Shown here: positions 2,257 through 34,780 of the stretch, piece after piece
Layout of the letters: the number at the start of each line of letters is the position of its first letter
Position numbering within the stretch: position 1 is the first letter of the stretch
From: Escherichia phage HEMP4
Length of the DNA: 39,891 nucleotides
Strand: one strand, 5' to 3'
Sequence record: OR424387.1
The notes under the pieces: model-generated
Database searches by the model: none
Seen by the model: only the letters and a program-made list of their open reading frames with translations
What the model was told of the DNA's origin: nothing
Program-made: the position numbers and the translations under genes

Positions 2257-2580
2257 GATGACCTCCTTTGAAGTTTTAGTTAGCAATCACCAGTTAGTAG
2301 CTGGTGATCGGGTGTCAACTAGAGCCTTCAAAGACGCTCCGGGCATATTCCCCTTTTGGGTATTGTATTACGCCTCTCCACCCGACCTTTGTACGGATGT
2401 GACTATGCCAAATTGCAGGCATAAAAAAGCCGCAAAGCTATCGGGTGCGGGTGACCGCTTTGAAGTTCTAGTGCGGTCAGTATGCGATAGCTCTGGCGGC
2501 ATTGTCAAATCATGCGCCACTGAGTCCAGCAATCTCTGCAATACCAATAGCGAGATAATCGCGATTCGTCAGGCGTGATT

Positions 2581-2829
2581 TTATTGCATATGTCTTAGCT
2601 CCACTGAAGTTGTGATTTTATATGGGTTGCCTTTTACCTCAATAACACGATGAGGATCATTTTTTAGCTCTTCCGTAATCTTCCGTAATCTTCTAACAGC
2701 TGAACTTCGGTGTTTATAACGGTAAGTTACAGTTTCTTTTCTCTGCAATACCTCATCATTGCGGTACTTAGTCAAAACCATGACGACTTCAAACCTGACG
2801 CCGTTGTGTGCAACCATAATCTGCTTCAT
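2581..2829 (-). CDS. Hypothetical protein (82 aa)
   Basis: ORF in operon context; internal ATG start overlaps stop of upstream methylase gene (translational coupling); contains 10-bp tandem repeat 2671..2690. Confidence 0.4.
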   Translation of the reverse strand: MKQIMVAHNGVRFEVVMVLTKYRNDEVLQRKETVTYRYKHRSSAVRRLRKITEELKNDPHRVIEVKGNPYKITTSVELRHMQ

Positions 2830-3476
2830 GCTGCACGCTCCCGCCCCTGGTTGTCTGTTGGTGACACCGGAGCATTGCTGAATGCATTTGTTAATCCGCC
2901 AATATCCAACGCGTATCCAGGGTGTAGTTGCACTGCCGGGTCTTCGCACTGATTACCCCAAACATCGAAGCCATGAGACGTCTGGCGGGCGAACAGTTCA
3001 ATGCGAGAAACATCGCCTAACAATTGCACAAGTTTTTCACGAACGACATCTGGTTTTCTTGAATGCTCAAGCCGCGGTGCGGTAAATGACTGAACGATCC
3101 CTGCATTAATGCGTGGAGGTAGTTTTCCCTTTACTGCAAACAGGCAATCTTCACTATTGGCGCGAGTCATGTGTCCCATACCCATAACCAGTTTATCTGG
3201 TTGTCGACTACCACATTTTATCCACGTGAAGCCCTTCATGGTCATCAGACGGAATCCCCAGGCTTCAACAACTTTTAGCGCTTCGAGTGGTTGTGTTGGC
3301 ACCCACCACATGGCCAACAGACAGTTTTCATCGGCCAAATCCCACACAGGAAGGCGGCAGATATCCATCACACTCATAACCGGATATTTAAAACTGGCAC
3401 CGCGATTACCATCTGCGGCTTTGTCCCGGTATACCCAGGGTGGATCTGCATAGATTAGTGTGTATTTCTTAGTCAT
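2826..3476 (-). CDS. DNA N6-adenine methyltransferase, MT-A70-like
   Basis: Protein begins MTKKYTLIYADPPW with DPPW catalytic motif typical of MT-A70/N6-adenine MTases; no adjacent restriction endonuclease gene recognised. Confidence 0.8.
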   Translation of the reverse strand: MTKKYTLIYADPPWVYRDKAADGNRGASFKYPVMSVMDICRLPVWDLADENCLLAMWWVPTQPLEALKVVEAWGFRLMTMKGFTWIKCGSRQPDKLVMGMGHMTRANSEDCLFAVKGKLPPRINAGIVQSFTAPRLEHSRKPDVVREKLVQLLGDVSRIELFARQTSHGFDVWGNQCEDPAVQLHPGYALDIGGLTNAFSNAPVSPTDNQGRERAA

Positions 3477-3768
3477 AAACCACCCCACAACATCCTATGC
3501 CGCTATAGTCGCCACGGCGAAGGCCGTTACCTTTTGTGATACATTGGTCCCTGCGAACCGCGATCCTTGCACGCTCAACATCACCAGAAGCAACATCCAT
3601 ACACTGAAGCCAAAGGTGGGCGGCAATGCGGAACTGCCCTTTTTTCTCTCTTTCAATCGCGCGTTTTTCGATCTCTATTGCCGCAGGAGTAACGGCAACA
3701 ACCTTTGAAGGGCTGCGCATTGAAACCTTGTTCATGTGATATTTTTCAAGTCGGCTTAACTTTCTCAC
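3469..3768 (-). CDS. Hypothetical protein (99 aa)
   Basis: ORF in leftward operon, overlaps methylase start by 8 nt; GTG start with GAGGG upstream. Confidence 0.4.
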   Translation of the reverse strand: MRKLSRLEKYHMNKVSMRSPSKVVAVTPAAIEIEKRAIEREKKGQFRIAAHLWLQCMDVASGDVERARIAVRRDQCITKGNGLRRGDYSGIGCCGVVYD

Positions 3769-5057: not shown

Positions 5058-5875
5058 ACGTACATATCCTGTTTACGTGCCCAGTCAGGGCGTTTAATAA
5101 TTTCCACTCCGCCCCATTCATCGTTGATGCGGCATTCGTGATAGGTATTCAGATCCCGGCGGAACAGAGCGTGCCCGGCATCGACATCCGGCGCATCCAG
5201 CTCGAACACGCGTACCGGATACCGACCACAATCAATGCTTTCGCTCACGGCAAGAAAGAAAAAACCATGTGGCTGACCAGTAACCCTCATTGCGCCTTCG
5301 CGGTACATTGCGTCCTGCACGTGGTAGCGGAACTCCTCGATGTGGCGTGCAAAACGGTCCATATCTGTAACCTTTTTCACGTCGACGATCACGTTGTGCT
5401 CTTTCAGCCATTTGTCTGGACGAATGCGGCACAACTCACCAGTCTCTTCATCGTTCCAGTACATTGATGCTTCGCAGTAACCAGGTGCTTCCAGCATCCA
5501 GCGTGCCGCCGGGTGAGCCATTGCGCTATCACGCATCAGCTCCAGTTTCCGCCACTGCTCGGCATCAAGTACCGTAATCCCCATATCCGCCACATCACGA
5601 AGAAATGCCTCTTCGTCAGCTTTACCTTGTTTCGTCCGACGATCGAATTTCGGCGAAACAATGAAGCGTTTGTCGAACTCTCCAGGCTCCAGAAGCAGAT
5701 AGTGCAATGCGGTTCCCATATCCAGTGCAGACTTTTTCTCTTCGTCTTCTGGTGCTGCCTGAACCCATTTAAGAAGCGCCGGATTCTTGGCAACCATGTC
5801 CAGTTGCGACTTACTCACGCCGTCCCCGGCGTGGTAGTCTTCGTTGCTGATGTCGAAATAAATTCCCGGCTTCAT
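5054..5875 (-). CDS. RecE-like exonuclease (PD-(D/E)XK, exodeoxyribonuclease VIII type)
   Basis: 273 aa starting MKPGIYFDISNEDYHAGDGVSKSQLD, characteristic of phage exonuclease VIII-like proteins; paired with annealing protein. Confidence 0.75.
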   Translation of the reverse strand: MKPGIYFDISNEDYHAGDGVSKSQLDMVAKNPALLKWVQAAPEDEEKKSALDMGTALHYLLLEPGEFDKRFIVSPKFDRRTKQGKADEEAFLRDVADMGITVLDAEQWRKLELMRDSAMAHPAARWMLEAPGYCEASMYWNDEETGELCRIRPDKWLKEHNVIVDVKKVTDMDRFARHIEEFRYHVQDAMYREGAMRVTGQPHGFFFLAVSESIDCGRYPVRVFELDAPDVDAGHALFRRDLNTYHECRINDEWGGVEIIKRPDWARKQDMYV

Positions 5876-7810: not shown

Positions 7811-8621
7811 GGTTGAAGTTATCACTCCTGATAAACCTGAAATTTTTCAGATAGCAGAAATTCTGGGTATTGATCCAGATGCTGTTCTTGGAAAGCTGGT
7901 TCGTATATGGGCATGGGCTGACCAGCAAACAATAGACGGTAACGCTGGCAGCGTTACAAAAGGAGTACTTGATAGACTCGCTTTTATTACAGGATTTGCT
8001 GACGCCCTCATTAGCGTCGGATGGCTTGCTTATCATGACGGCAAACTAATTCTTCCAAACTTTGAGCGACACAATGGAGAATCATCGAAAAAACGTGCAC
8101 TTACGAATAGAAGAGTGGCAGAGCATCGAAAACGAGTAACGCAAAAAGTAACGCCAACAGCGTTACAAAAGGAGTTACCAGAGGAAGAGGAAGAGGAAGA
8201 TATATATAAAACCCCACACATAGCGCACGTGCGCGAGGGTGCTCCGACCAGTGAAGCGAACAGTACGCCGTTGCAGGTGGCAGAACCTGAATTTCTGGAT
8301 GGCCTGAGTGAACCCATCGGGAAATTTCCGATGACAGATGGCTGGCTACCGTCGCCAGATTTTCGGCGGCGTGCTGCGCTGTGGGGAACGGCCCTGCCGG
8401 AACCGGAATTTACACCTGCTGAACTTGCTGCATTCCGGGATTACTGGATGGCTGAGGGCAAAGTGTTCACGCAGGTTCAGTGGGAACAAAAATTCGCCAG
8501 GCACGTAAATCATATCAGGGGAAAATCAAAAAATGCCGGGAAAAGCGATGAGCTTGACTGGAATAACACTGACTGGATAGAAGGGGTGTGGGATGAAATC
8601 AACTCCAGAACTTCTCAATGA
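7791..8621 (+). CDS. Replication initiation protein (O-like position, DnaT-like C-terminal region)
   Basis: ATG at 7791 with AAGAGGGG SD; occupies O position upstream of P-like gene; contains iteron-like DNA repeats; C-terminal AELAAFRDYWMAEGKVFTQVQWEQKFARHV resembles DnaT-like domain. Confidence 0.55.
   Translation: MASSWIKVEVITPDKPEIFQIAEILGIDPDAVLGKLVRIWAWADQQTIDGNAGSVTKGVLDRLAFITGFADALISVGWLAYHDGKLILPNFERHNGESSKKRALTNRRVAEHRKRVTQKVTPTALQKELPEEEEEEDIYKTPHIAHVREGAPTSEANSTPLQVAEPEFLDGLSEPIGKFPMTDGWLPSPDFRRRAALWGTALPEPEFTPAELAAFRDYWMAEGKVFTQVQWEQKFARHVNHIRGKSKNAGKSDELDWNNTDWIEGVWDEINSRTSQ
7939..7966. repeat. Iteron-like element 1 (GTAACGCTGGCAGCGTTACAAAAGGAGT)
   Basis: 28-bp sequence with internal inverted repeat AACGCTG/CAGCGTT; repeated at 8148..8175 in a different reading frame. 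Confidence 0.5.
8148..8175. repeat. Iteron-like element 2 (GTAACGCCAACAGCGTTACAAAAGGAGT), followed by (GAGGAA)x3 and AT-rich tract
   Basis: Near-identical to 7939..7966; extra AGTAACGC half-site at 8135..8142; (gaggaa)3 at 8181..8198 then tatatataaaa. Confidence 0.5.
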
Positions 8622-15820: not shown

Positions 15821-15897
15821 TGGCGCGGCATGCAGGATTCGAACCTGCGACCAACCGCTTAGAAGGCGGTTGCTCTGTCCAACTGAGCTAATGCCAC
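15821..15897 (-). tRNA. tRNA-Arg (anticodon UCU)
   Basis: Reverse complement folds as cloverleaf: acceptor GTGGCAT/ATGCCGC (one G-U), D-arm GCTC-AGTTGGACA-GAGC, anticodon stem ACCGC/GCGGT with loop CTTCTAA (anticodon TCT), T-arm GCAGG-TTCGAAT-CCTGC, discriminator G, CCA end; 77 nt. Confidence 0.85.
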
Positions 15898-18520: not shown

Positions 18521-19216
18521 ATGAATTTATTTGAGCGTTTGCTGTATCGCCGTCTTTGCAATGAGCAACCAGTCGATGGTGGAGCAGCTCCGGCTGCGTC
18601 AGAACCGTCAGCGCCTGCAGGTGATAACCATGCTCCAGTTGGTGATCCATCACAACCGGAAGGTGATAAGTCACAACCTGTTGCTGATGGCGATAAACCT
18701 GCTGATGACAAAAATCCTGAAAACGATAAGCAGGATGAAAAAAAGGACGGCGATAAACCAGAGGGTGCGCCTGAGAAGTACGAGTTTCAGGCTGCCGAAG
18801 GCGTAGAGCTGGATACAGAAGCGTTGAAGGAATTCGAGCCGGTGGCGCGAGAACTAAACCTGACCAACGAGCAAGCGCAAAAGCTGGTTGATGCTTATCC
18901 GAAGATTCTGGCAGGTGTTCAGCAGCGCCAGGTAGAAGCCTGGCAGAAAACAACCGAGCAGTGGGCTGCGGATGTAAAAGCTGACAAAGAAATCGGTGGC
19001 GACAAGTTGATTTCTAACCTTAGCGCCGCACAGCGTGCGCTTGACCAGTTCGGGACACCTGAACTCAAAGAATATCTGAACACCACCGGGCTGGGTAATC
19101 ACCCTGATCTGGTCAAAACGTTCGTGAAAATCGGAAAGGCGATGTCTGAAGATGGCATGGTCACCGGTGGTAATGAAGGCCAGCGTAGTGCGGCCGAAGT
19201 GCTCTATGGCAAATAA
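18521..19216 (+). CDS. Capsid scaffolding protein
   Basis: Acidic Pro/Asp/Lys-rich low-complexity N-terminal half, helical C-terminal half; immediately upstream of major capsid gene; AGGAG SD. Confidence 0.65.
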   Translation: MNLFERLLYRRLCNEQPVDGGAAPAASEPSAPAGDNHAPVGDPSQPEGDKSQPVADGDKPADDKNPENDKQDEKKDGDKPEGAPEKYEFQAAEGVELDTEALKEFEPVARELNLTNEQAQKLVDAYPKILAGVQQRQVEAWQKTTEQWAADVKADKEIGGDKLISNLSAAQRALDQFGTPELKEYLNTTGLGNHPDLVKTFVKIGKAMSEDGMVTGGNEGQRSAAEVLYGK

Positions 19217-34513: not shown

Positions 34514-34667
34514 GGTGGTTATCTCCACTTAGTGATTTTAATCACCACCGCAACGCCAATTACTGGTGGTGAACTGGACAAGGTTGGCGTACCGGCCTAA
34601 GTGGTACCGGCGTCCTTTCGGACCCCTGCCCAGCCCACCATAATTCGGATATAGCTGTGCTTAACGC

Positions 34668-34780
34668 ATAAAAAAACCACGTCTGGCGTGGTATGCGCCA
34701 CTTAGTAACTCGGGACGCCAATCCCGGCACTGGATTTTGCCAGTGCCTGATTACTATGGCACAAGAGGAGTGCGATGTAA
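34668..34780 (-). ncRNA. Candidate structured small RNA or leader upstream of Bro-N gene
   Basis: Minus-strand noncoding segment with stem-loops GGCACTGG-caaaat-CCAGTGCC and CGGGA-ttggcg-TCCCG, ending in terminator ACCACG-ccaga-CGTGGT plus U7; begins just downstream of operator-like site. Confidence 0.3.

Follow-up and report, generated by a model that had tools for sequence, protein, structure and literature searches.

In the lacI gene of Escherichia coli, three tandem copies of CTGG are said to form the classic hot spot of slipped-strand frameshift mutation. Tandem tracts have also been described in phase-variable genes. Their repeat numbers exceed those predicted from genome composition, and they mutate at rates 100–10,000 times the basal rate (PMC11868660); as the tract becomes longer, indel variability rises steeply (PMC3315296). 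Repeats of a different type are featured by Streptococcus pneumoniae, where capsule switching involves spontaneous tandem duplications in the cap3A, cap8E and tts genes (Waite et al. 2001, 2003, as cited in PMC4243769).

The DNA analyzed here, hereafter the window, is a stretch of 39,891 nucleotides from Escherichia phage HEMP4 (OR424387.1). The original prediction, made from the sequence alone, was that the decamer ttccgtaatc occurs twice in tandem, at positions 2671-2690, inside an ORF of 82 aa (ORF82), and direct reading of the sequence confirms it. The repeat is best explained as a tract perfected by base substitutions, which probably acts as a hot spot of slipped-strand mispairing in a real prophage gene. 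Features of the window are collected in Table 1.

Table 1. Sequence features of the window, with positions numbered from its first base
Feature	Position	Strand	Evidence and remarks
sRNA-Xcc1 match	2298-2387	-	Rfam RF02221; 62.9 bits (gathering score 53), E 3.5e-9, full model length
Unannotated segment	2400-2514		Common to many O157:H7 genomes
ORF82 (82 aa)	2581-2829	-	phrog_9805; RefSeq WP_000809680.1, "hypothetical protein"
Period-10 tract	2669-2693	-	Tandem Repeats Finder: 2.5 copies, 100% matches, no indels
Mosaic joint of the prophage module	2821-2829		At the ATGA overlap
ATGA overlap	2826-2829	-	ORF82 start codon (ATG) over MT-A70 stop codon (TGA)
MT-A70 family methyltransferase gene	2826-3488 (RefSeq 2826-3476)	-	Pfam PF05063, E 2.6e-22; directly upstream of ORF82
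18-base repeat	5468-5506		Tandem Repeats Finder: about 2 copies, 80-81% matched (range for the two 18-base repeats)
AGAGGA repeat	8180-8200		Tandem Repeats Finder: 3.5 copies, perfect, in-frame unit, within a DnaT-like gene
tRNA	15824-15897	-	69 bits; prophage-borne
18-base repeat	18682-18719		As for 5468-5506
C4 antisense RNA	34562-34645	-	Rfam, 66 bits
isrK Hfq-binding RNA	34670-34746	-	Rfam, 67 bits; adjoins the C4 match

ORF82 and its prophage setting

That ORF82 is a genuine small prophage gene under selective constraint is concluded from its phrog match, its lone open frame, its homologues, their dN/dS values, a confident structural model and the ATGA overlap with the gene upstream. Residues 1-82 match profile positions 1-82 of the 82 in phrog_9805 (E 6.1e-58), and a weak match links the protein to phrog_7046 (E 7e-4). 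Both are families of small phage proteins with no assigned function, and ORF82 is a full-length member of the former. No Pfam family matches the protein. On the minus strand the present frame is the only open one, the other two being filled by stop codons on both sides of the tract.

A word-indexed protein search with ORF82 retrieved nothing beyond its own cluster. P0017, a homologue of 72 aa with 52% identity, emerged when 1.84 billion representatives were searched exhaustively with HMMER, and a follow-up homology search recovered P0020-P0022. In P0020 (85 aa) the C-terminus is unrelated to the family past the residues KYVIS, and this protein is probably a frameshift allele within the outgroup family. 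The dN/dS ratio measures 0.10–0.22 between ORF82 and its homologues, and 0.17–0.27 among the homologues themselves; values within the clade (~0.3–1.7) derive from fewer than 10 substitutions, a number too small for interpretation. AlphaFold2, run on a mixed alignment, gave a pLDDT of 83.4 (78–83 in all five models) and a predicted fold made by a beta-hairpin, a helix and a second beta-hairpin (strands 13-23 and 26-38, helix 41-56, strands 62-64 and 70-80). The repeat, which spans codons 46-54, would thus encode the middle of the single helix of the protein. A structural-neighbour search with the model returned nothing informative.

The prophage that carries ORF82 is inserted next to guaA in E. 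coli, and the gene forms part of its leftward operon. The order of the genes is guaA, integrase (plus strand), Ant, ORF82, MT-A70, PerC-like, AlpA-like, RecT, PD-(D/E)XK nuclease and HTH repressor-like. It is on account of its position that ORF82 is called an early gene, and the position of the operon suggests also that a lysogen probably does not express it. For the structural genes the annotation gives Bbp16/Bbp19, capsid staple gp10 and T7-gp14-like core protein, a set which we take to resemble that of podoviruses of the epsilon15/phiV10 type. No DNA match to ORF82 was found in the INPHARED phage collection.

The ATGA overlap suggests that translation of ORF82 may be coupled to that of the MT-A70 gene. 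The 3' end of the latter is common to 857 of 5426 complete E. coli genomes, only 19 of which carry ORF82; in the other genomes with this 3' end the slot is taken by a gene for a DUF1382 protein or a Ser/Thr phosphatase. The overlap coincides exactly with a mosaic joint of the module. The homologues P0017, P0021 and P0022 reside in integrase-bearing islands (integrase/AlpA/Ash/DUF4222/AAA_25) resembling P4-type satellites, and have no MT-A70 gene as neighbour. The homologues at loci L018-L021 overlap their upstream gene by 8 bases.

Other elements were noted in the window. The sRNA-Xcc1 match falls in the gap of ~325 bases between ORF82 and the ant gene. The C4 and isrK matches adjoin BRO-N and antirepressor genes, and this region looks like a P1/P7-type antisense immunity module. 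In the near-identical prophage of TUM9803 a tRNA-Arg is located ~1 kb further along (L035, 16867-16943) than the tRNA of the window, so an indel of ~1 kb, situated between 2.8 and 16 kb, separates the window from TUM9803.

Structure and origin of the repeat

On the coding (minus) strand the tract reads GAAGATTACG GAAGATTACG GAAGA, and corresponds to residues R-R-L-R-K-I-T-E-E of ORF82. In the 39.9-kb window no other perfect tandem has two or more copies of a unit with a period of 8–30. When the bases were shuffled 1000 times, perfect tandems with a period of 10–30 and at least 2 copies were found in 2.9% of the shuffles, and those with at least 2.5 copies in none. The decamer was also evaluated as a dispersed binding motif. 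With one mismatch allowed at most, it occurs at 5 sites (1.9 expected), a number reached in 3 of 100 shuffles, and the three sites outside the tract are imperfect and distant; the candidate was rejected.

The unit length is not a multiple of three, and the original prediction that any change in copy number would shift the frame is borne out by the computed products. Alleles with 0, 1, 3 or 4 copies would encode 50, 51, 60 or 61 aa, respectively, in place of 82 aa; changes in repeat number would turn the full-length product on or off.

The repeat had also been viewed as a possible recent duplication, that is, as the net insertion of 10 bases into a single-copy gene. The two copies are perfectly identical, as fits a recent event, and the 2.5-copy shape (two units followed by GAAGA) is the one expected from slippage between two 5-base GAAGA repeats. 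This origin is nevertheless refuted, since the homologues (52-56% identity) align over the tract with no gap, and their similarity to the C-terminal 30 residues holds in the present frame. P0017 and residues 13-81 of ORF82 share 36 of 69 residues with 0 gaps (AVRRLRKITEELKND against AVKKFGQIAEVIKND), and P0021 and P0022 are likewise gapless over the tract. Codons 46-54 are AGA AGA TTA CGG AAG ATT ACG GAA GAG in the window and AGA AAG TTT GGG CAA ATC GCG GAA GAG in P0021. None of the three homologues lacks the second copy and reads through in frame. A one-copy gene would stop after 51 codons, with both alternative frames closed on either side, and diverged alleles have the same length and imperfect copies. 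The two-unit length is therefore ancestral, and was reached with no net 10-base insertion.

Alleles from E. coli and Escherichia albertii, compared at the 25-base register, form a series. In the outgroups P0017, P0021 and P0022 codon 47 is AAG (K) and codon 52 is GCG (A), 7–8 of 15 positions match at period 10, and the longest perfect tract measures 13 nt. Alleles C and P0005 feature AAA (K) and GCG (A), 13/15 matches and a 17-nt tract. Allele P0007 (AAA, K; ACG, T) and allele B (ACA, T; ACG, T) both have 14/15 matches and 21 nt. Allele A, found in the window, combines AGA (R) and ACG (T), and all 15 positions match along 25 nt. The perfect tract is restricted to allele A, and is not kept among orthologues. 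At residues K47, A52 and H23 the outgroups agree with the imperfect alleles, and dN to the outgroups is lower for allele C. The imperfect state is thus probably the older one, a polarity set by three amino-acid characters against a distant outgroup. Alleles P0005 and P0007 (L036-L039, 1601-1876) carry in addition a 27-base in-frame insertion past codon 4 (SKFNCVHMN), which extends the product to 91 aa and brings internal ATG codons, used as start by some annotators to give calls of 80 aa.

According to this series, a two-unit, repeat-like sequence with 13/15 period-10 matches would have preceded the perfect repeat, and two nonsynonymous point substitutions, A52T (GCG to ACG) and K47R (AAA to AGA), would have led to the tract of allele A. 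By our estimate, near-repeats matching at 13/15 positions are expected by chance ~0.9 times per 40 kb at periods of 7–30, so chance and two substitutions are sufficient as origin.

Instead of independent point substitutions, a templated event that left the length unchanged may have made or homogenized the near-repeat: one quasi-repeat may have been copied onto the other during misaligned replication, or a duplication may have been offset by a later deletion of 10 bases. All three residues at 48-50 depart from the outgroups (FGQ against LRK) within conserved flanks, period-10 matches arise from 5 of the 6 nucleotide changes that separate the tract from the outgroup state, and the later changes K47R and A52T also bring the two units closer to identity. 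The excess of match-creating changes is however uninformative, because the site had been picked for being a repeat and the pattern is forced by ascertainment; the statistic was accordingly rejected. Moreover, nucleotide identity to the outgroups is just 63-68%, which makes 8 changes in 27 bases unremarkable, and the existence of the intermediates P0007 and B shows that the tract was finally completed by substitutions occurring one at a time. The two templated routes, taken together, are unlikely, and chance followed by substitution is a plausible origin.

Gain and loss of repeat units in public assemblies

Uniform presence of two copies among orthologs, together with reads free of heterogeneity, had been indicated as the finding that would refute the original reading. 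Such uniformity holds in small samples. The 19 complete E. coli genomes carrying ORF82 align over 289–291 of 291 bases with no indels, 13 loci found in viral and metagenome contigs by a pattern permitting 1–3 copies all have two-copy spacing, and the tract keeps its length in the fifteen members listed for the protein cluster. A variable-gap pattern scan of the genome_contigs set gave 0 matches, probably since each species is represented by a single genome, that for E. coli being without this prophage. Uniformity breaks down in the larger assembly index.

The products of the 0-, 1-, 3- and 4-copy alleles were predicted, and then looked up as exact sequences in an index of ~15 billion proteins. 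The one-copy (51 aa, ending in RRLRKS) and three-copy (60 aa, ending in ITEDYGRAKK) products are present in the index; the zero- and four-copy products are absent from it, as are the corresponding one- and three-copy versions computed for backgrounds B, C, P0005 and P0007 or for an alternative start. At the DNA level, changes of exactly -10 or +10 bases were found in 10 contigs from 10 samples. L022-L027 (6 samples) have one copy, AGATTACGGAAGAG, and L028-L031 (4 samples) have three. The one-copy alleles come from runs SRR28786136, SRR3578947, SRR5886022 and ERR10854060 and from assemblies ERZ27287550 and ERZ28621284, the three-copy alleles from runs SRR8541475, SRR12495199 and ERR4421080 and from assembly ERZ1673732. 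The spacer is 14 bases in L022-L027, 34 in L028-L031 and 24 in every other E. coli locus compared. The potential slippage site envisaged in the original prediction has therefore both lost and gained exact units in nature. All variant contigs share the guaA prophage context, and outside the tract their ORF82 is identical to that of the window, bar one difference in L031; the rest of the gene being unchanged, the copy-number events are recent.

Variants are rare. At least 999 contigs carry an intact allele A, which sets the variants at ~1% of contigs or less, and none was found in 32 unbiased DNA loci (19 complete genomes and 13 viral or metagenome contigs). Variant contigs number 12 against at least 999 intact ones for allele A, and 0 against ~276 for allele B and 458 for allele C, a contrast between perfect and imperfect alleles which is suggestive only, since the allele-A count is a lower bound. 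In the R47T (B) background the gene is also interrupted by a nonsense mutation at codon 41 (CGA to TGA; L032, L033, 1501-1623), found in 4 contigs, one of which is from an NCBI assembly.

All variant contigs come from draft assemblies (Logan and ENA; Logan contigs, MEGAHIT k141 and SPAdes NODE assemblies). The repeat could accordingly be dismissed as an inconsequential coding coincidence, a near-repeat at about chance level and two substitutions away from perfection, and the one- and three-copy contigs as sequencing or assembly artefacts. This is very unlikely. The variants derive from ten different samples and three types of assembler, the changes involve exact units in both directions, and apart from these changes the contigs have the sequence of two-copy haplotypes. 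The tract (15–35 bases) is moreover about as long as the assembly k-mers or shorter and far below read length, so that collapse or expansion in de Bruijn graphs would not be expected.

Several haplotypes carry the variants. Over ~4.3 kb the three-copy L028 and L029 have the same sequence as the two-copy L011 and L014 (0 differences), and the three-copy L030 shows 3 differences over ~4.3 kb, and 0 over the nearest 1.6 kb, from the two-copy L007. L011 and L007 differ at ~150 sites, and L031 is separated from every other sequence compared by 18 or more differences per 1.6 kb. The one-copy L022-L025 differ from L007 by 3–19 changes, with distances additive through L007 as in a star, and L026 and L027 reside on two further backgrounds. 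The variants are thus spread over 6 or more haplotype backgrounds, of which some match distinct two-copy haplotypes exactly, with short-patch transfer of an identical ORF being possible. The nearest distinguishing SNPs are located 171–197 bases upstream and ~436 bases downstream; because ORF82 is identical in the variants and the SNPs are distant, a short conversion patch (<~630 bases) could move an allele between prophages. Parsimony without recombination calls for at least 3 gains and 3–5 losses; in the strict sense the data prove only one gain and one loss.

Gains and losses of exact units in nature, at a perfect tandem with two units or more, are what would be expected of a slippage hot spot, and we infer that slippage is the mechanism. 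The nascent strand, as it is synthesized, may re-pair one unit out of register, a shift that would leave 15 bases paired in the 25-base perfect tract, and exactly 10 bases would be lost or gained. The pairing available to a one-unit misalignment would amount to 15 bases in allele A and 11 in alleles B and P0007, and would be mismatched in allele C. Either change would shift the frame, truncate the protein to 51 or 60 residues and remove the C-terminal beta-hairpin of the predicted fold; the truncated products are presumed to be non-functional. Rare, recent and scattered variants form the pattern expected of recurrent neutral or mildly deleterious mutations, and we infer that they are such mutations, in a gene which the lysogen probably does not express, and not the output of a programmed switch.

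Phase variation and comparison with known systems

Phase variation, the other role first envisaged for the tract, is unlikely: variants are rare, and the perfect tract is found in one allele and is missing from the other alleles and the homologues. In its full form the proposal is that of an evolved contingency locus, ON with two copies and OFF with one or three, in which the population gains from stochastic and reversible switching of ORF82. Copy number does change naturally in both directions, by a unit not divisible by three, among nearly identical haplotypes (L023-L025, L007 and L030 differ by 3–6 changes over 4.3 kb). The three independent routes of loss (-10, +10 and the nonsense codon) could in addition reflect selection for the OFF state. 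The near-identity of one-, two- and three-copy haplotypes is at most compatible with reversal. To this must be opposed the small number of units (2.5), the absence of the perfect tract from B, C, P0005, P0007 and all homologues, the scarcity of variants reported above, and an operon which, by its position, is expected to be silent in the lysogen. Reversion should also be rare, because the one-copy allele keeps only the 5-base flanking repeat. An evolved contingency locus is thus quite improbable.

There is a still slimmer chance that the tract is a two-sided switch (1 OFF, 2 ON, 3 OFF) for a prophage early protein translationally coupled to the MT-A70 gene. If it were, lysogen and phage populations would carry heritable and reversible heterogeneity in the role of ORF82, for example in modulating the methyltransferase or host defence, and a 10-base, 2.5-copy tract born of two point substitutions would be an unusually minimal contingency locus. 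That the homologues are not located beside MT-A70 genes counts against a link to the methyltransferase.

As a mutational hot spot, the tract offers a small natural example of how such sites may be born, from a repeat-like coding segment, plausibly due to chance, and two substitutions; alleles with one unit gained or lost were found only on the perfect version. For annotation, the E. coli prophage "hypothetical proteins" of 51 and 60 aa correspond to slippage alleles of WP_000809680-type genes. The result bears also on typing or assembly quality control of guaA prophages.

With the contingency loci made by simple sequence repeats (PMC11868660, PMC3315296) the tract shares the switching of the frame by changes in repeat number, and variants among strains. 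It differs from them in having far fewer units, in not being conserved among orthologues, and in that a step in either direction from the in-frame state of ORF82 leads to OFF. The pneumococcal cap3A, cap8E and tts genes, as described in the cited account (PMC4243769), are alike in that tandem duplications within the ORF shift the frame, may be excised precisely, and involve units which are not simple-sequence repeats; the three-copy allele of ORF82 would be a duplication of this type. In the same account the ON state of the pneumococcal genes has no duplication, and duplications vary in site and size, whereas the ON state of ORF82 has two units, a single site is involved, and contraction occurs as well.

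The closest analogue appears to be the CTGG repeat of lacI. In both genes a perfect short tandem in the coding sequence gains and loses exact units, in both directions and, for ORF82, probably in recurrent events, with frameshifts presumed to be inactivating. The lacI repeat has a 4-base unit in 3 copies, that of ORF82 a 10-base unit in 2.5 copies; the evidence for the latter comes from natural polymorphism in assemblies, and the probable hot spot is confined to one allele. The mechanism is an already known one, and the ORF82 tract is probably a fresh example of slipped-strand mispairing.
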